64,000 nt of DNA from Flavobacteriales bacterium (GCA_016713865.1 JADJOG010000045.1:34898-98897); one strand, 5' to 3'. Positions 3,050 to 61,877 are shown, counted from the stretch's first letter. Notes: generated from the sequence alone by a model not told the origin. Translations and numbers: made by a program.

Positions 3050-4051
3050 ATGAAAACGATCGAACAACTCGCCCAAGAGCGCATCCTCGTCCTCGACGGC
3101 GCCATGGGCACCATGATCCAGAAGCTCGGCCTCACCGAGGAGGACTTCCATCCGCCCGGCATGGAGGACCACAAGATCCTGCTGAAGGGCAACAACGAGC
3201 TGCTCTCGCTTTCGCGGCCCGATGCCATCCGCACCATCCACGAGCAATACCTCGCGGCCGGCGCCGACATCGTGGAGACGAACACCTTCTCCGCCACCAC
3301 CATCGCGCAGGCCGAGCACGAATGCAGCCACCTCGCGCGTGAGCTGAACCTCGCCTCCGTGCGCCTCGCCAAAGAAGCTTGCGCGAAGTACACCGCCATG
3401 GATCCGAGCAAACCGCGCTTCGTGGCCGGCGCCATCGGGCCCATGAACAAGACCGCCTCGCTCAGTCCCGATGTGAACGACCCCGGCTACCGCGCCGTCA
3501 CCTTCGATCAACTTGTTGCTGCATACAAAGAGCAGGTGGAGGCCATGCTCGATGCCGACGTGGACATCCTGCTGGTGGAGACCATCTTCGACACGCTCAA
3601 CGCCAAGGCCGCCTTCTTCGCCATCGACGAGGTATTCCGAGGGCAGGGCACGCGCGTGCCGCTCATGTGCAGCGTCACCATCACCGATGCCAGCGGGCGC
3701 ACCCTCAGCGGCCAGACCATCGAGGCCTTCCTCATCAGCATGCAGCATGTGCCGCTCTTCAGCATGGGCCTCAACTGCGCGCTGGGCGCGGCCCAGATGC
3801 GGCCCTACCTGGAGGTGATCGCCGAGCAGAGCCCCTGCCGCGTGAGCGTTTACCCCAACGCCGGCCTGCCCGACCAGATGGGCGAGTACCGCGAAACGCC
3901 CGAGGTCACCGCGCGTCTCGTGGGCGAGTTCATGGCCAACGGCTGGGTGAACGTGGTGGGCGGATGCTGCGGGACGACGCCGGAGCATATCGCGGCACTG
4001 GCGAAGGAGGCGGGGAAACATGCGCCGCGGACAACACCGGTGCTGGCATGA
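3050..4051 (+). CDS. metH: methionine synthase homocysteine-binding module (Hcy S-methyltransferase domain) as a separate gene
   Basis: MKTIEQLAQERILVLDGAMGTMIQ... aligns to the MetH N-terminal Hcy-binding barrel over its whole length. It ends ...PEHIAALAKEAGKHAPR, the usual Hcy-module boundary. Confidence 0.85.
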   Translation: MKTIEQLAQERILVLDGAMGTMIQKLGLTEEDFHPPGMEDHKILLKGNNELLSLSRPDAIRTIHEQYLAAGADIVETNTFSATTIAQAEHECSHLARELNLASVRLAKEACAKYTAMDPSKPRFVAGAIGPMNKTASLSPDVNDPGYRAVTFDQLVAAYKEQVEAMLDADVDILLVETIFDTLNAKAAFFAIDEVFRGQGTRVPLMCSVTITDASGRTLSGQTIEAFLISMQHVPLFSMGLNCALGAAQMRPYLEVIAEQSPCRVSVYPNAGLPDQMGEYRETPEVTARLVGEFMANGWVNVVGGCCGTTPEHIAALAKEAGKHAPRTTPVLA

Positions 4052-4196
4052 ACGCTTCTTTCTTGGGTTGTTTGGGCGTGCCCCCTCGCAAAGCCTTGGG
4101 GTCGCGCTTTCCGCTGTACTCCTCGCTCGTTCCTCGCTGCGGGGTGCCGCTCCAATCGCTCACGCAATTTCGGCTCTGACCTGAAGTGATCGTCAC

Positions 4197-4640
4197 ATGA
4201 AGAAGGGCACACACGAGAAGAGCATCAGTGAACTCGAAGGCTGGACTTGGACGGACCCAATTCCCTCCGCTGATGACTCGTCCGGTACCGTGCTCCGCTT
4301 CTACCGACTCCACCGAACGCCGATCAAGGATCTGGATCTCGGTGATCTGAGGTTTCTGATCGGTCAGAACGCCGCGTTGGAGCACCTCGTGCCCATGGCA
4401 TTGGATCAACTGAGGAAGAACCTGTTCGTCGAAACAGACTACTACCCTGGTGACCTTCTTCAAGCTCTGTTCTCGATCAACGACGAACCGAGTTATTGGA
4501 CCGCACATCCGGATCATCGCCAGATATTGATCCGACTTTACGAGGACAACATGAGACAAACTCCAACTGTGGAGATGTCCTCAGGTGACTTGAAGAAGAT
4601 CGAACGTGAGTATGAGAAGTTCAAAGCACAGTTAGTCTGA
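4197..4640 (+). CDS. hypothetical 147-aa protein, lower-GC insertion between the two metH genes
   Basis: Intact ORF at about 52% GC in a ~65% GC background. It sits exactly between the Hcy-module gene and the pterin/B12 module gene. No confident family match; a small acidic helical protein. Confidence 0.55.
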
Positions 4641-4641
4641 C

Positions 4642-7176
<2,535 letters not shown>

Positions 7177-7208: not shown

Positions 7209-8450
7209 GTGAAATTGGCCCGCATTCTCTTCTTGCTGGTCGTTGCTGCTAGTGCGTTGCCCGCGCTGGCGCAGCGCACCGCCGCTCCGCTCACGCAGGA
7301 GAACGGCGATTGCATGGGCGCCATCTTCATCGCCGATTCGGTCTTACACCAGCCGCAGGCCGTGCGCGGTTTCGGCAACAAGCTCGAGATCAAGGAGAAC
7401 CCCAGCGACCACACCCAGTGGTTCGAGCGCGAGCATCACAGCACCTGGTACAAGTTCCGCAGCCCCGCCACCACCACGCTCAGCTTCAGCATCATCCCCG
7501 ACAACATCGAGGACGACATCGACTTCCTAGTTTTCGAGGGCGCCATACCCGGCATCTGCGACAAGATTATGGGCAAGCAGGTGCAGCCCATCCGCAGCAA
7601 CATCTCGCGCAACGACAAGAGCAACCGCTCCATCTGCGGCTTGCGCAAGGATGCCCCCGACAACTATGTGCGCAGCGGTGTGGGCAGCAGCTTCAGCCGC
7701 GCCATAGAGGTGAAGCAAGGCGACCTCTTCTATATCGCGATCGATTACCAAGACCGTCCAATCGCTGGTTACACGATCAAGTTCCACTACGACCCTCCGC
7801 CACCGCCGCCCGAGCCGGAGCCCGAGGAGGACAAGAAGAAGAAACAACAACTGCTGATCACCGTGGTGGATGGCAAGACCGGCAAACCCGTGGATGCCAA
7901 CCTCACCATCGATGGCATGCGCTTCAACGAAGTGGTGGAGGCCAAGGGCAAGAGCAGCTACCAGTTCGAGATGGACATGTACCGCAACCTGAAGATCGGC
8001 TGCGTGCGCCAAGGCTATATGTTCCAGACCGTGCGCGTGAAGGGCAGCACCGAGCCAGAAGTGAAGGTTGAGGTGAGGTTGAACCCAGTAGGCGCGGGCG
8101 AGCGCGTGGTGCTCGATGATATCCGCTTCGTGGGCAATGAGGACAAGGTGATGCGCCAGAGCGAGGCCAGCTTGCTGCTCCTATTGCGCTTCCTGCAACT
8201 CAATCCCAAGGTGCGCATCGAGATCGAGGGCCACGTGAACGGCCCCACCTTCAAGAACAAGAAGGAGTTCATCGACCTGAGCACATCGCGATCAAAGACC
8301 GTTTATGACTTCCTCGTGGTGAACGACGTGGAGCCGAACCGCCTATCCTACGTGGGCCTCGGTAACTCCCAGATGCTCTATCCCAGCCCGAAAAACAAGG
8401 AAGAGAGCGAGGCCAACCGCCGCGTAGAGATCAAGGTGCTGGGTAATTAG
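7209..8450 (+). CDS. OmpA family protein (signal peptide, N-terminal beta-rich domain, Pro/Glu/Lys linker, C-terminal OmpA-like peptidoglycan-binding domain)
   Basis: Signal peptide MKLARILFLLVVAASALPALAQ, a linker PPPPPPEPEPEEDKKKKQQ, and a C-terminal OmpA_C-like region (VVLDDIRFVGNEDKV...NRRVEIKVLGN). Confidence 0.8.
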   Translation: MKLARILFLLVVAASALPALAQRTAAPLTQENGDCMGAIFIADSVLHQPQAVRGFGNKLEIKENPSDHTQWFEREHHSTWYKFRSPATTTLSFSIIPDNIEDDIDFLVFEGAIPGICDKIMGKQVQPIRSNISRNDKSNRSICGLRKDAPDNYVRSGVGSSFSRAIEVKQGDLFYIAIDYQDRPIAGYTIKFHYDPPPPPPEPEPEEDKKKKQQLLITVVDGKTGKPVDANLTIDGMRFNEVVEAKGKSSYQFEMDMYRNLKIGCVRQGYMFQTVRVKGSTEPEVKVEVRLNPVGAGERVVLDDIRFVGNEDKVMRQSEASLLLLLRFLQLNPKVRIEIEGHVNGPTFKNKKEFIDLSTSRSKTVYDFLVVNDVEPNRLSYVGLGNSQMLYPSPKNKEESEANRRVEIKVLGN

Positions 8451-8642: not shown

Positions 8643-10034
8643 TTGCTTTGCGGAGCCACCGCCTTCGCCCAGCAAGCCTGGACCCTTGAGCAATGCGTGA
8701 AGCGCGCCGAGGAGCGCAGCTTGGCGGTGCTCAATGCCCAGCTCGATGCCGACCTGGCCGACAAGACCAAGGACCAAGGCTATTGGGCTTTGGCCCCCGA
8801 CCTGAACGGCGGCGCCACGCACGGTTACAACTACGGCCGTGTGATCGATCGCTTCACCAACACCTTCGCGAACGACCGGGTGCAGACGAACAACTTCTAC
8901 CTGAGCAGCACGCTGAGCTTGTTCGAGGGCTTCCGCAAGCAAGGGGTGATCAAGCGGAACGAGGTTGATGCGAAGGCCGCGCGTTTGGGCATTGAAGCTG
9001 CCCGCAATCAAGCGCGGCTCGAAACGGTGCAAGCCTTCCTCGATGTGGTGGCGCTGCGCGAACGCAAGGCCGCCGCTGAAGCACAAGCGGCAAGCACGCG
9101 CGAACAGATCGCGCGCACCGATGCTTTGGTTGAGGCGGGCCGTGTGGCGCGCGCCGATCTGCTCGCGATTGAATCGCAATTGGCACAAGAGGAATTCACC
9201 ATCGTGGATCTCGGCAACCAAGCCGATCAGCGCATGCTCGCTTTGGGCCGCGCACTTCAATTGGAGCCGCAAGAGATGCTCAGCTTCAACATCCAAGCAC
9301 CTGCCATCAGCGGGCTGCGCATCACGGAACCGACGGTCGATCCAAGTGAAGTGCTCGGGAACGTGCTGCGCACCAATCCCAGTTTCGCGCAGGCAGAGAC
9401 GCAGGTGGAAAGCGCCGAGAAAGGTATTGGGATCGCACGGGCGGGCAGTTTGCCCACGCTCGGCGTGAACGGCTCTCTCGGAACTGGATATAGCGGTCGC
9501 AACTTCCAGCAAGTGGGAGAGCCCATCCTCGGCAATCCGGTGGTCATCGGCAGTACGCTCGGTGGAGATCTGGTGTACGCGCCGACCTTCGATGTGAACA
9601 CCGAGCTCACACCGTTCGGCACCCAACTGGATCAGAACCTGAACCAGAGCATTCTCTTCCAACTCAACGTGCCGCTCTTCAATCAGAAGCAGAACCGCTT
9701 GGCCATCGACCGTGCGCGGGTGCAGCACGAGCGCGCGCGCAATAGCCTCACCGCTGTTCGCAATGACTTGCAGCGCAATGTGCTCGACGCCATTGTGGCG
9801 CAGCGCTCGGCCTACAAGCAGTTCCTGGCCGCGCAAAAGGCCGTGGATGCCGCAACACTCAACGAGGCCTACGCCACCGAGCGCTTCACGCAGGGCGTGA
9901 TCACCAGCATGGAGCTGGCCACCGTGAAGGCCACCGTGAACCGCTCACAGGCAGACCAGATCGCCGCCAAGTACCAGTACCTGATGGCGCAGAAGTACCT
10001 CGAGATCCTGCAAGGGATACCCGTTTCTTTGTAA
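8643..10034 (+). CDS. TolC family outer membrane efflux protein (start region frameshifted or TTG start)
   Basis: 463-aa ORF with TolC-like alpha-helical repeats. An ATG at 8617 is out of frame by one base; restoring a single A (atgaAgagc) would give MKSLLFLAALLCGATAFAQQ, a clean signal peptide. Confidence 0.75.
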   Translation: MLCGATAFAQQAWTLEQCVKRAEERSLAVLNAQLDADLADKTKDQGYWALAPDLNGGATHGYNYGRVIDRFTNTFANDRVQTNNFYLSSTLSLFEGFRKQGVIKRNEVDAKAARLGIEAARNQARLETVQAFLDVVALRERKAAAEAQAASTREQIARTDALVEAGRVARADLLAIESQLAQEEFTIVDLGNQADQRMLALGRALQLEPQEMLSFNIQAPAISGLRITEPTVDPSEVLGNVLRTNPSFAQAETQVESAEKGIGIARAGSLPTLGVNGSLGTGYSGRNFQQVGEPILGNPVVIGSTLGGDLVYAPTFDVNTELTPFGTQLDQNLNQSILFQLNVPLFNQKQNRLAIDRARVQHERARNSLTAVRNDLQRNVLDAIVAQRSAYKQFLAAQKAVDAATLNEAYATERFTQGVITSMELATVKATVNRSQADQIAAKYQYLMAQKYLEILQGIPVSL

Positions 10035-53643: not shown

Positions 53644-54432
53644 CTAGGCGGCCACCCCAACAACACTCACCATCGCCGCCTTCGCCGCATCCACAGCCAG
53701 CTCCGCGCTAGCGAGGTTTTGCGAAGCGATGGCAGGGTTCTTCGCATCCAGCAGCACGCTGATCATCAACGTCCCCTGCTTCGCTTGCACCGTGAACCGC
53801 CTCGGGTGCGCTCCATCAGTATTGCAAGTGTGAATGAACCGGCAGGCTTCACCGTCGGATCTCGAATCCCGTCTCCGTCGATACTGTGTCAACCATTGGC
53901 GCAAGGCGATCCGATCCGTCCGGGTAAAGACGGTGTCAACTCCCAATTCGCCCAACTCACCGGTATTCATCGAAACAACGAGCGTGTCGTTGGTCTCCAC
54001 CAGAAAGGCGCTGCGTTCATACACGCCGCCGTGGTGGTCGTTCTCGGCAAGGGAGAACCAATGGGGCAGCTTCGAGCATCCATCGAAGAGGGTGAGCGTT
54101 AGATACCGCACCGCATGGTCGCACTCGGGAGAACTGTTCAGGACAAGGAGCCCCAAGCGAGATTCCCTTATCAAGATCTTGCCTATGACCCACGCAGAAT
54201 CACTTTCCGTCATTCTCCTGTCGTGAAGGGCTTGGAAACCTTCCGCATCCAAGCTGATCCAATTCGGATCAATCGTCTTTTCAACGTAGTTCAGGTCGAA
54301 CTGGCGTTCCGTTATCACAGGAGCGCTTCCAATGACCTCGCACAGATCAGAAGGGGATGAGGGCAGGCGAGGATAACCAAGTTGACTCAGCACGAGCGGC
54401 ACACAGGTCAACAAGGTCAGGGAGGGCTTCAT
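53644..54432 (-). CDS. hypothetical secreted/lipoprotein whose 3' end is a diverged copy of the mfd 3' end
   Basis: Signal peptide MKPSLTLLTCVPLVLS. Its last ~100 nt are homologous to the last ~90 nt of mfd: both contain caccatcgccgccttcgc and gcacgctgatc...gtcccc, and the proteins share a C-terminal ...AKAAM(V/E)SVVGV..AA tail. Confidence 0.45.
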   Translation of the reverse strand: MKPSLTLLTCVPLVLSQLGYPRLPSSPSDLCEVIGSAPVITERQFDLNYVEKTIDPNWISLDAEGFQALHDRRMTESDSAWVIGKILIRESRLGLLVLNSSPECDHAVRYLTLTLFDGCSKLPHWFSLAENDHHGGVYERSAFLVETNDTLVVSMNTGELGELGVDTVFTRTDRIALRQWLTQYRRRRDSRSDGEACRFIHTCNTDGAHPRRFTVQAKQGTLMISVLLDAKNPAIASQNLASAELAVDAAKAAMVSVVGVAA

Positions 54433-54477: not shown

Positions 54478-57400
54478 TTATGCTGCAACGTTCACCCCCA
54501 CAACGGATTCCATCGCCGCCTTCGCACCCTGAACGTTCTTCACATCCTGCACGCTGATCCGCAAAGTCCCCGCCTTCTCGTACACCTTGAAGCGTCGTGG
54601 TTGCGCTTGCACGGCGCGAAGTACTGCGTTGAAGCCATCGCCCTCGAAGAACGGGTGCTTTTGATCCGCGATGAAGGTGCCGATGAGCGTGCCCTTCTTC
54701 AGCACCATCTTCTCCAGGCCCATGCGTTGCCCCAGCCAGCGCAGGCGGATGCCTTCGAGCAGTTCGTTCACCAGCGGTGGGATCGGGCCGAATCGGTCGG
54801 TGACCTCCGTGGTGAACTTCTGCAGTTCCGCTTCGTCCTTGATGTCGTCCAGCCTGCGGTAGAGCGCAAGGCGTTCGGCGGTCTCGCTCACGTAGCTGTT
54901 GGGAATCAGCATGGTGAGATCGGTCTCGATGATGCAGTCGTCGCTCTGGTCGCGGCGTGATCCGCGGGCGAGTGCGTGGCTGCCTTCCTGGGCATCGTCG
55001 AAGAGGTCCTTAAAGTGCTGGTCCTTCAATTCGCGCACGGCCTCCTCCAGGATCTTGTGGTAGGTCTCGAAGCCGATGTCGTTGATGAAGCCGCTCTGCT
55101 CCGCGCCGAGCAGATCGCCCGCACCGCGGATGTCGAGGTCTTTCATCGCGATGTGGATGCCGCTGCCCAGGTCGCTGAACTGCTCGATGGCTTGCAGGCG
55201 TTTGCGGCTGAGGTCGGGGAGCAGGTGCGGGCTCGGCGCGAGCAGGTAGCAGTAGGCCTTTTTGTTGCTGCGCCCCACGCGACCGCGCAATTGGTGCAGA
55301 TCGCTCAGACCGAAGTTCTGTGCCTCGTTCACGATGATCGTGTTGGCGTTCGGGATGTCGAGGCCGTTCTCCACGATGGTGGTGCAGACGAGAATGTCGG
55401 TGTTGCCTTCGATGAAGTCCATCATCACTTCCTCCAACTTGTGGCCTTCCAGTTGACCATGACCAACGCCCACGCGAGAACCGGGTACGAGCTTCCGGAT
55501 CATGTCGGCGATGAACTCGATGTTCTTCACCTTGTCGTGCAGGAAGTACACCTGGCCGCCGCGTGAGAGTTCATACTCGATCGCACCGCGTATCGTCACT
55601 TCATCGTACGGCTGCAACATCGTGCTCACCGGATACCGGTTCGGCGGCGGCGTGCTGATAATGCTCAGGTCACGCGCGCCCATGAGGCTGAATTGCAAGG
55701 TGCGCGGAATCGGTGTGGCGGTCAGTGTCAGCGTGTCCACCGTCGCGCGCAACGTCTTCAATTTGTCCTTCACGTTCACGCCGAACTTCTGCTCTTCGTC
55801 GATGATCAGCAGGCCGAGGTCCTTGTACACAACATCCTTGCTCACCAAGCGGTGTGTGCCGATGAGGATATCGATCTTTCCTTCCTTCAGGTCCTTGAGG
55901 ATCTGCGTCTGCTGCGCGCTGCTGCGAAAACGGTTGATGTAGTCCACGCGCACGGGTAGCCCTTTCATGCGGGCCGAGAAGCTCTTCCAGTGCTGCAACG
56001 CGAGGATCGTGGTTGGCACGAGCACTGCTGCCTGCTTGCCATCGCACACCGCTTTGAACGCGGCACGTATCGCCACTTCCGTCTTTCCGAAACCGACATC
56101 GCCGCAGACCAGTCGATCCATCGGCGTGCTCTTCTCCATGTCGCGCTTCACGTCCTGCGTGGCCTTCAGCTGGTCGGGTGTGTCTTCGTAGATGAAGCTC
56201 GCCTCGAGTTCGTGCTGCAGGTAGTTGTCCGGCTGGAACGCGAAGCCCGGTTTGCTTTTGCGTTGCGCGTACAGCTTAATCAGGTCGAAGGCGAGCGCCT
56301 TCACCTTGGCCTTGGTCTTCTCCTTCAGGTTCTTCCACGCGGGCGTGCCGAGCTTGCTGATGTTCGGTGCCTTGCCGCTTTCCTCGCCGCTGTACTTGCT
56401 CACGCGGTGCAGACTGTGGATGCCCACGTATAGGATGTCGTTGTCGCGGTACTTCAGGCGGATGGCTTCTTGCATGGAGCCGCCCGCGTCGATGGTCTCC
56501 AATCCGCTGAAGACACCGATGCCATGGTCGATGTGTACCACCAGGTCGCCGGGCTTCAGTTGCGTGAGCTCCTTCAGCGTGAGCGCCTGCGAGTTCTTGC
56601 GGAAACCCTCTTTCAACCGATAGCGGTGGTAGCGCTCGAATATCTGGTGGTCGGTGTACAGTGCCAGCTTCAGCTCGGGGTCGATGAAGCCTTCGTGCAG
56701 ATCAAGAACAAGAGGCGTGAAGGCCACCTCATGCTCCATATCATTGAAGATCGTGTAGAGCCGTTCGCTCTGCTTCGCGCTGTTGCAGGCGATCAGGTTG
56801 GTGTAGCCCGCGTTCTGCTTGTTGTGCAGGTCGCCGCTGAGGACCTTGAACTCTTTGGCGAACGTTGGTTGCGGCCTCTGCTGGAAGTCAACGATTACAG
56901 AGGATTGCTGATTCGCTGATTCCTGATTCGCGCTGCGGAGGAAGACCTTGCGGAAGCCGAGTGTGCTCTTGATCGATTCCGTGTCGGTCGCAAGCAATTC
57001 GCTTGGCGTTGGATGTTTGTCCTTCTCCGAGAGCTTCTCATACACCTCGTTCAACAACTTCAACTGCTTCGTTGCTGCATCGCCGATGGCTTGCAGATCG
57101 CGCAGCCAGATCACCGCATCCTCCGGCAGTTGCGCGAAGAAGTTCTGTTGGCGCGCGGCATCCTCATCCTGCAGGTCAGGCACGATTACAGCTTCCGCAA
57201 GGAACTCCACGGTCAATTGGTCCTGCGGATCGAAGCGGCGCACGCTCTCCACGTTGTCGCCGAACAACTCGATGCGGTAGGGCTTGTCGCTGCCGTAACT
57301 GAACACGTCCACGATACCGCCGCGGATGCTGTACTGCCCCGGCTCGTACACGAACTCCACGCGGCTGAAGCCCGTTTCCTCCAACCACTCTTGCAGCGTG

Positions 57401-57891
57401 TCGATGGGCAGCTCCTCGTGGCGCTTCACCGTGAGCGTGTTGCTCTTCATCTCCTCCTGGCCCATCACGAGCGGCACCAGCGCTTCCGGGTAGGTGACGA
57501 GTATGAGCCGCTCCGGCTTCTTCATCAGCGCTTCCAGGACTTCCGTGCGGCTCATACGCTCGCCGTCGTGATGGCCTTCTGGGTCGTAAGGCGAACGGGA
57601 AGGAGCGGGGAAGAAGAAGGTGTCCTCATCCTTCGCCTTGCGACTCTCCTTGTCCTTCCCGCGAAGCGCTTCGAGGTCGTTAAGGAAGTAGGCGGCCTCC
57701 TCGCGGTCAGTGAGCACGAACACATGCACGCCGCCCATCCGCTCCATCACGGATGCGGCAATGAGCGCCTGCGCCGAACCGATGGTGCCGGCGATCTGCA
57801 CGCGGGCAGCTTTTTCGCGTAAGCCTTCAGCCACGCGGGCTATGCGGGCATCGGAGCGGTAGAGGGAGAGGAGGTCGGGGAGGGATGTCAC
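54478..57891 (-). CDS. mfd: transcription-repair coupling factor Mfd
   Basis: Full-length Mfd: the UvrB-homology N-terminus, a CarD/TRCF RNA polymerase-interacting domain, DEAD/H helicase motifs (GDVGFGKTEVAIRAAF, DEEQKFG, and HQLRGRVGRS in the helicase C-terminal domain), and a TRCF C-terminus. The start is the GTG at 57891 (MTSLPDLLSLYRSD). Confidence 0.85.
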   Translation of the reverse strand: MTSLPDLLSLYRSDARIARVAEGLREKAARVQIAGTIGSAQALIAASVMERMGGVHVFVLTDREEAAYFLNDLEALRGKDKESRKAKDEDTFFFPAPSRSPYDPEGHHDGERMSRTEVLEALMKKPERLILVTYPEALVPLVMGQEEMKSNTLTVKRHEELPIDTLQEWLEETGFSRVEFVYEPGQYSIRGGIVDVFSYGSDKPYRIELFGDNVESVRRFDPQDQLTVEFLAEAVIVPDLQDEDAARQQNFFAQLPEDAVIWLRDLQAIGDAATKQLKLLNEVYEKLSEKDKHPTPSELLATDTESIKSTLGFRKVFLRSANQESANQQSSVIVDFQQRPQPTFAKEFKVLSGDLHNKQNAGYTNLIACNSAKQSERLYTIFNDMEHEVAFTPLVLDLHEGFIDPELKLALYTDHQIFERYHRYRLKEGFRKNSQALTLKELTQLKPGDLVVHIDHGIGVFSGLETIDAGGSMQEAIRLKYRDNDILYVGIHSLHRVSKYSGEESGKAPNISKLGTPAWKNLKEKTKAKVKALAFDLIKLYAQRKSKPGFAFQPDNYLQHELEASFIYEDTPDQLKATQDVKRDMEKSTPMDRLVCGDVGFGKTEVAIRAAFKAVCDGKQAAVLVPTTILALQHWKSFSARMKGLPVRVDYINRFRSSAQQTQILKDLKEGKIDILIGTHRLVSKDVVYKDLGLLIIDEEQKFGVNVKDKLKTLRATVDTLTLTATPIPRTLQFSLMGARDLSIISTPPPNRYPVSTMLQPYDEVTIRGAIEYELSRGGQVYFLHDKVKNIEFIADMIRKLVPGSRVGVGHGQLEGHKLEEVMMDFIEGNTDILVCTTIVENGLDIPNANTIIVNEAQNFGLSDLHQLRGRVGRSNKKAYCYLLAPSPHLLPDLSRKRLQAIEQFSDLGSGIHIAMKDLDIRGAGDLLGAEQSGFINDIGFETYHKILEEAVRELKDQHFKDLFDDAQEGSHALARGSRRDQSDDCIIETDLTMLIPNSYVSETAERLALYRRLDDIKDEAELQKFTTEVTDRFGPIPPLVNELLEGIRLRWLGQRMGLEKMVLKKGTLIGTFIADQKHPFFEGDGFNAVLRAVQAQPRRFKVYEKAGTLRISVQDVKNVQGAKAAMESVVGVNVAA

Positions 57892-57931
57892 TGTGCCGGT
57901 GTGGTTATGCGTTGACAGCAAGGGCAAGTGT

Positions 57932-58792
57932 TTAATTGGCTGGAGGGGCGACCCAGTCCCATATCCCTCTCTTATGATTGAATGTCCAGTGCACAGCTTT
58001 TGTAAAGTTCTGGCTGGGGTTTGTGCAACGTATTTCCAACCCTCGGCCCAAGGCAAGTGCGTCCTGTCTTTTTGCTCTATCGTTCAAGCGACGCTGGTGC
58101 CGAAGCAACTCATTGTAGAAGAGAACGACTCGATGGAAGATCTCTTCCCACCAGGGATATCGTTCTTGAGTGTGGGGTGCGTGTCTCTTCGGGTCATAGT
58201 TCGTGAAGCCGATGCTGTTGTCTGTTATGTAGAACTGACTGTGAGCGACGGCATTACGCACTTGAGACCGATATATGCTCTTCAAGAGGTTGTAGTACTT
58301 GGGACATGTTGACTGAAGCGGGTCACGTATCTGAAGTCTGATTAGTTCTTGTCTAGAATCGTCGGGGCCAATTGTGTACTGCCAATTGAATGGCTGGCCT
58401 AAAGCAAGCTGGGTATAGTGGTAGAGCTTCTTCAGAATGCGATCTGCTTCCCAGAACCTCAGATAAACCATCATCTCGAACTGAATTGTCTGCCGAATTG
58501 CCTTTGCGACGTCGGGGTCCTTCTCCGCTTTATCGAATGTCTCCTTTCGCGACTCGTTTGCTAAGAAGGCCTTTCGATACATGTCGTAGAACTCGTATTG
58601 GGTGTGCTCTGCTTCATGATCCCAACCACCCAGTCCAGGGCCGAATCCGTTGTCGATTTCAGTGAATTGCCCGATTTCTGTCAACAAGAGATCCTGAGGG
58701 TGATCTAAGTTCCGATAGATGGTCTGAAACAGTTCGGCGACGGCCTCTTCCACCTCCGGTCGAAGCCTTTCGAGAATTTCTTCGAATAGCAT
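57932..58792 (-). CDS. hypothetical protein with a canonical HEPN-type R-N-x3-H motif (candidate defence/abortive-infection RNase), in a low-GC islet
   Basis: 286 aa at about 50% GC in a ~65% GC background. It carries the motif SQVRNAVAHSQFYI (R-N-x-x-x-H), is largely alpha-helical, and has no signal peptide. Confidence 0.45.
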   Translation of the reverse strand: MLFEEILERLRPEVEEAVAELFQTIYRNLDHPQDLLLTEIGQFTEIDNGFGPGLGGWDHEAEHTQYEFYDMYRKAFLANESRKETFDKAEKDPDVAKAIRQTIQFEMMVYLRFWEADRILKKLYHYTQLALGQPFNWQYTIGPDDSRQELIRLQIRDPLQSTCPKYYNLLKSIYRSQVRNAVAHSQFYITDNSIGFTNYDPKRHAPHTQERYPWWEEIFHRVVLFYNELLRHQRRLNDRAKRQDALALGRGLEIRCTNPSQNFTKAVHWTFNHKRGIWDWVAPPAN

Positions 58793-58920
58793 GTTTCGGT
58801 GATATGGTCACACAAACGCCCGAAACCCGGTGCCGCACATCGCGGGCATCGGGTTCGGGTGGTCAAATGTACCGTCATGGGTTCGCTCAGTATGTAGCTT
58901 TTGTCGTATAGCTTTCCGAC

Positions 58921-59490
58921 ATGGGGTACGCCTTTTCTCACTCATGGGCAATGACGCGACGTTCTTGTATGCAGGGCGATCGTTTGGAAGGATTTCTACT
59001 GCATGAGTTCTTCGTTCAGCACTTACCCTATCGCCTGTCTCAATTGCTCGCATTGAGGAGGTGGGAGGAAGAGCGCCGACAATTAATTCCCTGCGCACAA
59101 CATCGACGCTTTGCTCCTGCACACGTCGAGGCCACTGCTCTGATGGCTAGAGCTTTCCTTAATCTTCTCGGAGTGTCCTACGCTCCGAACTCCAATCAAT
59201 TGGTCACGACCAGGTTTAAGGATGATGATTTACGCGCTACCGACTTGGGTGGCAGAATGGTTGACCTCAATAGCTTGAATGAGGCTGACCAGGATATCCT
59301 GAAACGTGTCTTGTATCAAGCGAATAAGGCGACCGCCCACATCACTTTCGGCGATTACATGATGGACGGTTGGCAGTGTCTTCCCCGTGGAGTCGATATT
59401 GTCTACGAGTTGCTCCGAACACATCTGTATGAACCCGCCGGCTACCCGATGCTGGAGGTGTGGAAGAATCCTGAAGAGGAAGTGGGGTAA
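58921..59490 (+). CDS. hypothetical protein divergent from the HEPN-motif gene, with a degenerate copy of the same motif
   Basis: 189 aa at about 50% GC. QANKATAHITF parallels QVRNAVAHSQF of the neighbouring protein, with R-N replaced by N-K. It is flanked by ~27-bp imperfect direct repeats. Confidence 0.35.
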   Translation: MGYAFSHSWAMTRRSCMQGDRLEGFLLHEFFVQHLPYRLSQLLALRRWEEERRQLIPCAQHRRFAPAHVEATALMARAFLNLLGVSYAPNSNQLVTTRFKDDDLRATDLGGRMVDLNSLNEADQDILKRVLYQANKATAHITFGDYMMDGWQCLPRGVDIVYELLRTHLYEPAGYPMLEVWKNPEEEVG

Positions 59491-59601
59491 TTCCCTGCTC
59501 ACGTTTCCCGCGTCGAGGTGCCTCGTTTCTTGCTGCACATTGAGCCCAACGCCGCGCATTCCGGGCATCGGGTTCGGGAACGGGTGCGAAGCTACGTGTA
59601 G

Positions 59602-61824
59602 CTATTCCTTGATCAGCCGTGCGCTTTCCATTGCTGTCGTGGAAGCGATCTGAACGATGTAGATGCCAGGAGGAAGGTTGCTGATATCGATGTGCGCCAC
59701 ACCCGCCACCTGCGCGCCACGGACGATACGACCCTGTGCATCGAAGATGGTGAGCCTGGCGGGTGCAGGGTCCGTGCGTTCGATGCGCACGTTATCCGTG
59801 GCCGGATTCGGGAAGATGCGTGTGCCCGATGTTGGCGCGGCAGTTAGTCCCGTGACGATGACTTGGATCGGTGCCGATGGCGCCGATACGCAACCAGGCC
59901 CTTCGGTAACGACCACATGGTAGTTGCCCGGTGCGATGGCCTCCAAGCACAGGTTGTTTCCATCAGGAATGGGTTCGCCGTTAAGGAACCATTGCACAGT
60001 GCCGAAGGTGTGGGTGCAGAGGTAGGAGCCGACCTGCTGGATCGCTGGCACGAACGCCATTTGTGGGCAGCCGATCTGCGCCCGGAAAATGTCGCCGTCG
60101 TTCGCAGCACCGATCAATGTGCCATCCACGAAGGCCGCATCGCTGAAGGACGAATTCAGAACTTCGGAGATGAAGTTGTTCTCCCAGCTTATTCCACCAT
60201 CCACGCTGCGCACGGTCTGCCCGGATGATGCGACCGCATAGCCTGTATCGGCATCGGTGAAGAAGATGGCCCGTGTCGATTGTGGCGTTCCACTCATGAT
60301 CGTCCATGTTTGCCCGCCATCCGTGGTTCTATGAAGTCCTGTCCATCCGCGCTCTTCATCCAGGAAGAAGACCGTGACCTGTCCTGCACTCACCAATGGC
60401 CCAAGGTCGGCCCAGGTGATCCCCGCATCCGTTGTTTTGTACAAGCTGGTTCCTTCGCCCACGGCGTATCCGGTGGTTTCCGTCGGGAAGTACATGTCGT
60501 ACGGGTTGCCAGCCGGTGTGTAGGTCCAGCTGCTGCCACCGTTGGTGGTCCGATAGAACCCGCCGTTCAAATTGCCGCCTGCCACGATATAGGTGGTGGG
60601 CGAGAAGGAATGCGTGCAGCGGATCACCACTTGCGGCCGTGATCCAGCAGGTCCATTCTGAACAGTTGCAAAGAAATCGCCGGTATGCGCATTCACTCCT
60701 TGGCCACCACCCGATGAACCAGCGCCATCGGACCTGAGATGCACACCGAGACCAATCACATCCGATGCGGCCCAGTGCCTTCCGCCATCGATCGTTCGCA
60801 CGCCTTCCGTGCTGCCGGCAACAACCCCGATCTGATCATTCGCGAAGCTCATTTTAGTCAAGCCGTTCGGAGTGCCCACGTGTACGATGCTCCACGTTGC
60901 ACCCATATCCTGCGAACGGTAAACGATCCCGGAAGCACCCATGAGCCCGACGCCCGCCGGTGTGAAACTGAGCGAATGCCGTTCGCGATTGTCGGAGGTT
61001 TGCACCGTCCAAGTGGCTCCACCATCGGTGCTGCGAATGATGCGGCTCAATGCACCACAGGCGATCAACGTGTTGCCTTGTACTTCAAGGTCGTTCATGG
61101 TGGATGTGGTCGGAGAATTGATCAAGGACCAGGTGTCGCCACCATTCACGGTGCGCAGGATCACGCCCACCGCGCCCACTCCGATCCCATTCATGGCATC
61201 CCAGAAATGGAGGTCCTTGATGTTCACCAGTTGCGGAGTGGGCAATTGCTCCCATGTGCTTCCGCCATCAGTGCTGCGCAGGATGTACTGTGCGGCCACT
61301 GCGAAGCCGAGTTGATCATCCACGAAGAAGAAGCGTTCGAGCTGAGAGGTGATGCCGCTGTTCTGCAAGGACCATGTAAAGCCCGCATCCTCGGTGCGAA
61401 AGATCTTTCCGGTGGAAGTTCCAGCGAATCCAAGCGTGTCGTTCACGAAATGGATCGCGGTGCAATTGCCGATCGACACACCGATGATCGTCACAAGGGG
61501 CAGGAAGCTATCAAAGCCATCGATGGTGCGATAGATTTTGCCATTGTTCGCAGCGATCACCCCGCGTTGTGCGTCCCACATCCACAAAGCCCGAGGCATG
61601 CCACCAGTGCCCAGGTTATTCGCCTTGCGCTCCCAATGCATGCCGCCGTCACGCGTGGAAAAGATGCCGCCGTGCAGGTCATCGATCATGAAGCCTGTCA
61701 CCGGGTCGATCATTTTCATGTCTCCCAGACGGTCATCATCCCGAATGGGTGTGACCAAGTGCCATTGCTGGGCGTTGGCAACGGATCCGGACAAGAGGAG
61801 AAGGAGGGTTAGCGCGTGCTTCAT
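59602..61824 (-). CDS. BNR/Asp-box repeat protein (sortilin/Ycf48-like beta-propellers) with a T9SS type A C-terminal sorting domain
   Basis: The ATG at 61824 (MKHALTLLLLLSGSVANAQQ); repeated S/T-x-D-G-G-x-T-W boxes (STDGGSTW, TVNGGDTW, STDGGATW, TIDGGRHW, TTNGGSSW, TTDGGQTW, SVDGGISW); and the C-terminus IFPNPATDNVRIER...LTIFDAQGRIV...LPPGIYIVQI, which is TIGR04183-like. Confidence 0.75.
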   Translation of the reverse strand: MKHALTLLLLLSGSVANAQQWHLVTPIRDDDRLGDMKMIDPVTGFMIDDLHGGIFSTRDGGMHWERKANNLGTGGMPRALWMWDAQRGVIAANNGKIYRTIDGFDSFLPLVTIIGVSIGNCTAIHFVNDTLGFAGTSTGKIFRTEDAGFTWSLQNSGITSQLERFFFVDDQLGFAVAAQYILRSTDGGSTWEQLPTPQLVNIKDLHFWDAMNGIGVGAVGVILRTVNGGDTWSLINSPTTSTMNDLEVQGNTLIACGALSRIIRSTDGGATWTVQTSDNRERHSLSFTPAGVGLMGASGIVYRSQDMGATWSIVHVGTPNGLTKMSFANDQIGVVAGSTEGVRTIDGGRHWAASDVIGLGVHLRSDGAGSSGGGQGVNAHTGDFFATVQNGPAGSRPQVVIRCTHSFSPTTYIVAGGNLNGGFYRTTNGGSSWTYTPAGNPYDMYFPTETTGYAVGEGTSLYKTTDAGITWADLGPLVSAGQVTVFFLDEERGWTGLHRTTDGGQTWTIMSGTPQSTRAIFFTDADTGYAVASSGQTVRSVDGGISWENNFISEVLNSSFSDAAFVDGTLIGAANDGDIFRAQIGCPQMAFVPAIQQVGSYLCTHTFGTVQWFLNGEPIPDGNNLCLEAIAPGNYHVVVTEGPGCVSAPSAPIQVIVTGLTAAPTSGTRIFPNPATDNVRIERTDPAPARLTIFDAQGRIVRGAQVAGVAHIDISNLPPGIYIVQIASTTAMESARLIKE

Positions 61825-61877
61825 CGTGATGGATCGCGAAGTTGGGCCGATTCGGTACAACTCGGAAAGGCTTGGGT

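Follow-up and report, generated by a model that had tools for sequence, protein, structure and literature searches.

The islet between mfd and a beta-propeller gene

A 64-kb stretch of DNA from a Flavobacteriales bacterium (GCA_016713865.1, JADJOG010000045.1:34898-98897), in the following called the window (WIN), contains a low-GC islet between the gene mfd and a gene for a BNR/Ycf48-like beta-propeller protein. The islet harbors two divergently oriented open reading frames (ORFs), ORF-A and ORF-B, as well as an intact and a truncated copy of an element composed of a promoter box and a hairpin (Table 1). We propose that ORF-A probably encodes a stand-alone RNase of a new family of the HEPN superfamily, which is read from the promoter of mfd, and that ORF-B is an independent HEPN-fold gene with an altered motif; both lie in a slot upstream of mfd that is empty or filled with unrelated genes in related genomes. 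These related loci are labelled L001-L118, L032-L118 being metagenome loci that contain the element. The initial annotation of the window had reported both ORFs, a HEPN-like motif in each of them and the drop in GC content, all of which are present. The GC content of positions 57932-59490 is 0.506 compared with a window mean of 0.600 (standard deviation 0.021, 1.56-kb windows), and no other 1.56-kb segment of the whole 64 kb lies below it. At third codon positions the GC content (GC3) amounts to 0.58 in ORF-A and 0.56 in ORF-B, compared with 0.78-0.82 in the flanking genes. The naming of the two flanks was likewise correct, since Mfd shows 86-92% identity to genes with UvrB_inter, CarD_TRCF_RID, DEAD, Helicase_C and TRCF domains, and the ORF that ends at 59602 matches beta-propellers of the Ycf48/HCF136 type. 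The latter flank is also found in L030 and in 13 other element loci. ORF-B most likely begins at its second Met, because all homologs start there, and with this start 158 nucleotides (nt) separate 58792 from 58951.

Table 1. Position and strand of the features in the islet and of its two flanking genes (numbering of the window)
Feature	Position	Strand	Remarks
mfd (transcription-repair coupling factor)	54478..57891	-	GTG start at 57891; without own leader element
ORF-A	57932..58792	-	286 amino acids (aa); contains SQVRNAVAHSQF
ORF-A motif R179-N180-A-V-A-H184	codons 58241..58258	-	predicted catalytic Rx4H
Intact promoter/leader element	58819..58871	-	-7 box and 41-nt imperfect hairpin, upstream of ORF-A
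Hairpin of intact copy, CCCGAACCCGATGCCCGC-GATGT-GCGGCACCGGGTTTCGGG	58819-58859	-	ends 26 nt before ORF-A ATG
-7 box of intact copy, TACATTTG	58864-58871	-	
ORF-B	58921..59490	+	189 aa; likely start 58951, giving 179 aa; contains QANKATAHITF
ORF-B variant motif N-K-A-T-A-H	codons 59323..59340	+	
Truncated second element copy	59551..59594	-	between ORF-B stop and stop of BNR-like gene
-7-like box of truncated copy, TAGCTTCG	59587-59594	-	
BNR/Ycf48-like beta-propeller gene	59602..61830	-	upstream flank of the slot

Two protein families with predicted HEPN-like folds

A hypothetical protein from a Flavobacteriales metagenome-assembled genome has the same sequence as ORF-A, for which 18 close relatives were found. 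A profile search against 1.84 billion representative sequences retrieved 447 proteins at E<=1e-3, of which 315 at E<=1e-10, and the proteins of this family almost all have a length of 270-320 aa. In an alignment of 70 members with 21-58% identity to ORF-A the residues M1, G51, E115, W137, R179, N180, and H184 are invariant, and E106, like E115 an acidic residue upstream of the motif, is nearly invariant. The HEPN superfamily is defined by an Rx4-6H motif with a polar residue (N, D or H) following the Arg, which is located at a helix end ahead of a long terminal helix, and HEPN domains work as dimers (PMC3710099). R179, N180, and H184 of ORF-A correspond to this definition, and they do so family-wide. 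The string R-[NDH]-x3-H alone is not rare, as several unrelated ORFs in the fetched loci have one; the motif of ORF-A is significant because it is invariant across the family. The AlphaFold2 (AF2) model of ORF-A is confident (predicted local distance difference test, pLDDT, 83.5; predicted template modelling score, pTM, 0.86) and places the motif where helix 176-183 ends, with a beta insert and then the long helix 212-246 coming after it, so that the HEPN-like fold and the canonical motif position that had been suspected are recovered in the prediction. Besides this core the model contains additional N-terminal helices and a C-terminal three-stranded sheet. Weak matches to Cas13a in the PADLOC library, found in five of the 70 family members, also count in favor of the HEPN assignment, and on this modest support we consider it likely that ORF-A is a member of the HEPN superfamily.

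For both proteins the impression that no named family fits proved right: Pfam, NCBIfam, and PADLOC remained empty at E<=10, and neither the named HEPN families (Abi2 with AbiD/AbiF, DUF4145, RiboL-PSP-HEPN) nor the abortive infection (Abi) models of PADLOC gave a significant match to ORF-A or ORF-B. PDB sequence searches with the family profiles of ORF-A and ORF-B (A1, A3, A4) yielded no meaningful match, and a bromodomain match at E 0.18 was dismissed as noise. Since ten members had no match in PHROGs, there is no sign of a phage origin. Between genomes in which the neighboring Mfd proteins share 84-92% identity, ORF-A reaches only 58-65%; its divergence is about three to four times as fast as that of Mfd.

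ORF-B belongs to a second, small family, of which three relatives were found by a single-sequence search and 15 by a profile search. Invariant in this family are (179-aa numbering) an N-terminal H-L-P-Y-R motif, R67, G74, K126, T128, and H130. The canonical Arg position is taken by N, S or D, which results in the motif [N/S/D]-K-A-T-A-H, and ORF-B thus lacks the Rx4-6H pattern. In the predicted model helix 1, helix 2, a beta insert, helix 3, the motif, and helix 4 follow each other; this corresponds to the HEPN core of four helices, the insert separating helix 2 from helix 3, in which the motif covers the end of helix 111-126 and the following loop, ahead of helix 144-163. ORF-B had been regarded as degenerate and catalytically dead, which has to be revised: as Lys, Thr, and His are invariant among relatives of 22-67% identity, the site is a conserved variant and not the result of decay. 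Judged from this conservation, the motif site appears to be under selection within its own family, and ORF-B can be described, on the basis of its model, as a predicted HEPN-fold protein with a variant site. The protein may act as an RNase whose basic residue has shifted, or else it may bind nucleic acids. Two candidate -7 boxes upstream of ORF-B, TAGCTTTT (58895) and TAGCTTTC (58909), plausibly provide it with a promoter of its own.

The two proteins had been taken for paralogs that form a toxin/antitoxin or regulator pair. A comparison of the 70-sequence with the 15-sequence profile by hhalign gave a probability of 0.06% at E 0.78, which speaks against paralogy. Moreover, when both families were searched by tblastn and hmmsearch over 31 fetched loci, none of the 31 held both: a relative of ORF-B was present in none of the 22 loci with a relative of ORF-A, and a relative of ORF-A in none of the nine loci with a relative of ORF-B. 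The closest ORF-A homolog (L030, 75% identity) has the same BNR-like gene upstream and a different gene, of 311 aa, at the position of ORF-B, and this gene is likewise flanked by two element copies. ORF-B itself lies in reversed orientation between the truncated and the intact copy, and its position between duplicated copies is consistent with a separate insertion. The relatives of ORF-B occur singly: their neighbor is dnaE, a transporter gene or, where a GmrSD/PDDEXK/AAA/WYL cluster borders on the locus, hisS. As far as these genome comparisons indicate, ORF-B does not appear to be a conserved partner of ORF-A.

About 20 contexts of ORF-A homologs were annotated. In at least five distinct genomes (WIN, L001/L042, L009, L030, L099) the gene is located directly upstream of mfd on the same strand, at a distance of 40 nt in the window, and more distant homologs never adjoin mfd. 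The latter are accompanied by a Type ISP restriction-modification gene, Abi_alpha, and a GHKL ATPase (L004), in L010 by SIR2/DUF4917, DUF6978, DUF1828, and DUF4238, with an Eco57I-type methylase on the opposite side, or by AbiEi/AbiEii and IS3 (L024). A DUF4145 HEPN gene (7262-7975) directly adjoins the homolog of L026, with the conjugative-transposon gene TraM nearby. L028 contains a Type ISP restriction-modification gene and an RNxxxH protein (RNDIVH, 7626-8405) with a weak RiboL-PSP-HEPN match, and L018 contains XRE and HNH genes and an RDxxxH protein (RDTFIH, 8915-9778) without Pfam match; Fic and GIY-YIG genes are the neighbors in L020 and L023, respectively. Together with ORF-B in the window, four of the about 20 contexts (L026, L028, L018, WIN) thus show an unrelated second HEPN-type gene directly beside the ORF-A homolog. 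The defence setting that had been suggested for the islet holds in part: about half of the ORF-A homologs outside the mfd slot adjoin restriction-modification, Abi, toxin-antitoxin or mobile-element genes, whereas about six contexts are plain housekeeping neighborhoods. Clustering of the neighbors across all ORF-A loci revealed no conserved partner except mfd in the closest relatives. A conserved upstream partner was considered for the genes of about 670 aa in L004 (the GHKL ATPase) and L010 (the Eco57I-type methylase) and was rejected, as the two are unrelated.

Atypical composition is also found outside the window. GC3 is low (0.48-0.62 compared with about 0.8 in flanking genes) in the ORF-A homologs of L002, L009, and L030 and in the ORF-B homologs of L006 and L031, and is thus a property of both families in every high-GC genome checked. 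ORF-A stays about 0.2 under its flanking genes in each of these genomes, although the gene keeps its position beside mfd. Its fast divergence, atypical composition, patchy distribution, and frequent restriction-modification, Abi, toxin-antitoxin or mobile-element neighbors make ORF-A look more like an accessory gene of biological conflict than like a housekeeping gene, on evidence that is circumstantial.

The promoter/hairpin element and the gene slot before mfd

The -7 promoter consensus of Bacteroidetes is TAnnTTTG, and TACATTTG fits this consensus. The box was recognized by eye; a scan for sigma-70 promoters and terminators gave no information, as the promoters of Bacteroidetes are different. 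On the strand of ORF-A the hairpin is followed by a T-rich stretch and then by the start codon, and the whole conserved module, -7 box and 41-nt hairpin, comprises ~75 nt. A 28-nt direct repeat (58832-58859 and 59551-59578, 25/28 nt identical) brackets ORF-B, and on the ORF-A strand it corresponds to the 5' half of the hairpin. The truncated copy has kept the 5' arm and the inner stem and lost the 3' arm. Only these two copies of the repeat occur in the 64 kb, with none expected by chance; a weak third copy within mfd (57836-57854, 74-79% identity) was taken as chance. A dispersed REP-like (repetitive extragenic palindromic) element was rejected in view of the two copies in 64 kb and of contigs of 0.2-1.6 Mb that each hold a single element locus. 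The element is also present about 37 nt upstream of the ORF-A homologs in L001, L009, and L030, and L030 has a second copy next to the alternative 311-aa gene. Among 79 copies, stem pair 46/52 alternates between G-C (47) and C-G (19); on the sense strand there are also G-U wobbles. Rfam gave no match at E<=1 in positions 57700-59800 of the window and none at gathering score in five element loci.

A scan of metagenome contigs with an exact pattern of 21 specified bases detected the element in 87 contigs, and mfd follows in nearly all of them. In about 22 loci the slot is empty, with the mfd start 62 nt from the element. In about 50 loci there is one intervening gene (100-450 aa), and mfd begins 370-1500 nt from the element. 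The intervening genes belong to more than 25 unrelated families, among them ORF-A, a MORN-repeat lipoprotein, DUF4238, an Mrr_cat nuclease, DUF6000, and a SAM (S-adenosylmethionine) methyltransferase, and many are without Pfam match. It is common for these genes to end in a stop codon that overlaps with the start of mfd (ATGA, GTGA or TTGA). Ten loci contain two or three element copies. In L009 a hipBA toxin-antitoxin operon (HTH_3, Couple_hipA, HipA_C; 3826-5417) lies immediately upstream of the element and the ORF-A homolog; a HipA N-terminal-like ORF was also seen upstream of the element in six metagenome loci.

Some copies of the element are followed by a short duplicated fragment of the mfd 5' end, namely in L109 (9456-10280), L111 (4724-4925), and L115 (158-360), which points to crossovers inside the 5' coding region of mfd. 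If the conserved element and the strongly conserved 5' end of mfd served as arms, homologous exchange would account for both the single replacements in the slot and these duplicated fragments. The distal element copies of WIN, L030 (1830-1890), and L071 (209-270) lack the 3' arm of the hairpin and share a different continuation, ...CGG-NNTTGGG(T)C..., a resemblance to hybrid sites that hints at site-specific crossover within the hairpin. In L109 the first ~15 Mfd codons are fused in frame to a MORN-repeat lipoprotein cassette, which likewise points to crossovers in the mfd 5' coding region. At the other end of mfd in the window, the 3' end of a directly downstream ORF of 262 aa (53644-54432, minus strand) is a diverged duplicate of the mfd 3' end (54478-54610), with an identity of 76% over 59 nt and of 82% over a further 33 nt; the protein tails read ...AAKAAMVSVVGVAA in the 262-aa ORF and ...GAKAAMESVVGVNVAA in Mfd. 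This duplicate suggests that recombination or insertion took place at the mfd 3' end, too. A PDB sequence search with the 262-aa protein found no significant match.

Function and origin of the islet

On balance, ORF-A is probably a stand-alone HEPN RNase of a new family and the first cistron behind the mfd promoter/leader, acting as an abortive-infection or toxin-type effector under post-translational control, with ORF-B as an independent HEPN-fold gene that carries K-x3-H. The islet would then consist of two independently acquired single-gene insertions for HEPN-fold proteins from unrelated families, which would be neighbors because both landed in the same variable locus. Since ORF-A sits between the promoter-hairpin leader and the mfd start, it is probably transcribed together with mfd from that promoter; the lack of a separate leader element at mfd likewise makes co-transcription of the two genes presumable. 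By analogy with characterized HEPN enzymes the protein would dimerize, and R179, N180, and H184, probably with E115, would form an RNase site that needs no metal and generates 2',3'-cyclic phosphate ends. As a conflict effector ORF-A would stay inactive after translation until it is triggered, and its extra N-terminal helices and the C-terminal three-stranded sheet are candidates for this control.

Several observations weigh against this interpretation. Foldseek found nothing with E<0.7 for ORF-A in the PDB, no HEPN model of Pfam matches any of the 70 ORF-A or 15 ORF-B family members (E<=0.1), and PADLOC, NCBIfam, and PHROGs have no real match. A toxic RNase that is constitutively co-transcribed without an antitoxin would require a control mechanism. 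Furthermore, many of the other cassettes in the mfd slot resemble secreted proteins or lipoproteins and not defence genes, and the plain housekeeping contexts, which make up about half of those of the ORF-A homologs, belong on the same side.

Among known systems, the Abi2 family (AbiD/AbiD1/AbiF, PF07751) and DUF4145 come closest to ORF-A: these are single genes for proteins of about 250-350 aa with R-N-x3-H, located in or near restriction-modification operons and defence islands and without a dedicated antitoxin. ORF-A is alike in size, motif, and context, and in L026 a DUF4145 gene is even the direct neighbor. However, ORF-A and the 70 family members have no Pfam or PADLOC profile match, the model shows the C-terminal sheet and, separating the motif from the last helix, a beta insert, and in this lineage the gene is embedded in the mfd operon. 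Compared with HepT of the HEPN/MNT systems (PDB 7ae2, 8xdj, 5yep; HI0074, 1jog; TTHA0636, 1wwp), ORF-A is twice the size and ORF-B is without the Arg; a gene for an MNT nucleotidyltransferase antitoxin is not adjacent in the window or in any annotated homolog locus. HEPN families with variant motifs have been described, namely Parep1/8, which kept the His and lost the Arg, and AbiV and AF0298, which kept the Arg and lost the His (PMC3710099). ORF-B is comparable to Parep1/8 in this respect, but no sequence relation was detected, and K-x3-H with the invariant Thr and the N-terminal HLPYR are specific to its family.

That ORF-A and ORF-B form a functional two-gene module, in which an active HEPN toxin is restrained or regulated by an adjacent HEPN-fold partner with altered site, e.g., by heterodimerization, would agree with their divergent adjacency, with the HEPN-like folds predicted for both, with the dimeric action of HEPN domains (PMC3710099), and with the second HEPN-type gene beside the homologs in L026, L028, and L018. 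However, these second genes are unrelated to ORF-B, the two families co-occur in none of the 31 loci, the 75%-identical homolog has another gene in place of ORF-B, the ORF-B homologs stand alone, and the duplicated element copies around ORF-B are consistent with a separate insertion, so that we consider such a module very improbable. Equally improbable is a role of ORF-A as housekeeping RNA-processing or Mfd-associated factor of this Flavobacteriales lineage. Its position directly upstream of mfd in at least five genomes and the shared mfd promoter/leader would be expected of such a factor, whereas the empty or differently filled slots in related genomes, the distant homologs that never adjoin mfd, the divergence relative to Mfd, and the atypical GC3 in every genome checked are not. 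It is somewhat less improbable, yet still unlikely, that one or both proteins are helical bundles other than HEPN RNases, which use R-N-x3-H or K-x3-H for ligand or nucleotide binding or for regulation. The missing matches to HEPN profiles listed above leave room for this, but HEPN proteins make up most of the top-ranked matches of either protein, the location of the motif, from helix 3's end into the loop, and the polar residue after the Arg agree with the superfamily definition, and the genomic contexts are like those of other HEPN families.

A further explanation concerns the slot rather than the proteins. The promoter-hairpin module upstream of mfd in this Flavobacteriales lineage might be where a hitherto undescribed system captures single-gene cassettes, similar to an integron platform but without a recognizable integrase nearby, a view that we put forward tentatively and regard as rather doubtful. 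One resident promoter/leader would drive short promoterless cassettes such as the ORF-A HEPN family, DUF4238, and the Mrr-type nuclease, the cassettes would insert precisely before the mfd start codon with translational coupling, and arrays would arise through duplication of the module; ORF-A and ORF-B would be two entries in a pool of mobile cassettes, among them new families of HEPN effectors. The slot indeed resembles integron platforms and hotspots flanked by core genes in having one resident promoter and a hairpin site that is repeated at the cassette boundaries, as well as short, apparently promoterless, unrelated single-gene cassettes in arrays of up to three. In contrast to integrons, which have an IntI tyrosine recombinase adjacent to attI and attC hairpins 3' of the cassettes, the repeated hairpin unit of the slot includes the promoter and lies 5' of each cassette, and the cassettes appear to be coupled in translation to a housekeeping gene. 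Inspection by eye revealed no core site of the GTTRRRY type. ORF clustering of the flanks of 91 element loci revealed no recurrent recombinase-like family, a search with integrase profiles not having been made, and the duplicated mfd 5' fragments suggest homologous recombination. Full-text literature searching retrieved nothing specific on an mfd hotspot, a cassette slot or the HEPN family of ORF-A.

HEPN RNases are the effectors of Cas13, of Csm6, and of many Abi and toxin-antitoxin systems. Both protein families described here are new within this known superfamily, that of ORF-B with a variant catalytic motif. The family of ORF-A comprises about 450 sequence clusters, mostly from Bacteroidota and relatives, which are unnamed in curated libraries and have an invariant R-N-x3-H, and it is therefore a candidate for annotation pipelines and defence screens. 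The conserved K-x3-H variant in the family of ORF-B lets one ask if a Lys shifted by one residue replaces the catalytic Arg. The genomic setting may outweigh the protein families in importance, as a housekeeping promoter/leader appears to be reused as the site where dozens of single genes, unrelated to each other, have landed, with stop codons that overlap the start of mfd. The mfd slot could illustrate a way in which Flavobacteriales exchange accessory and defence genes while no mobile-element machinery is obvious.

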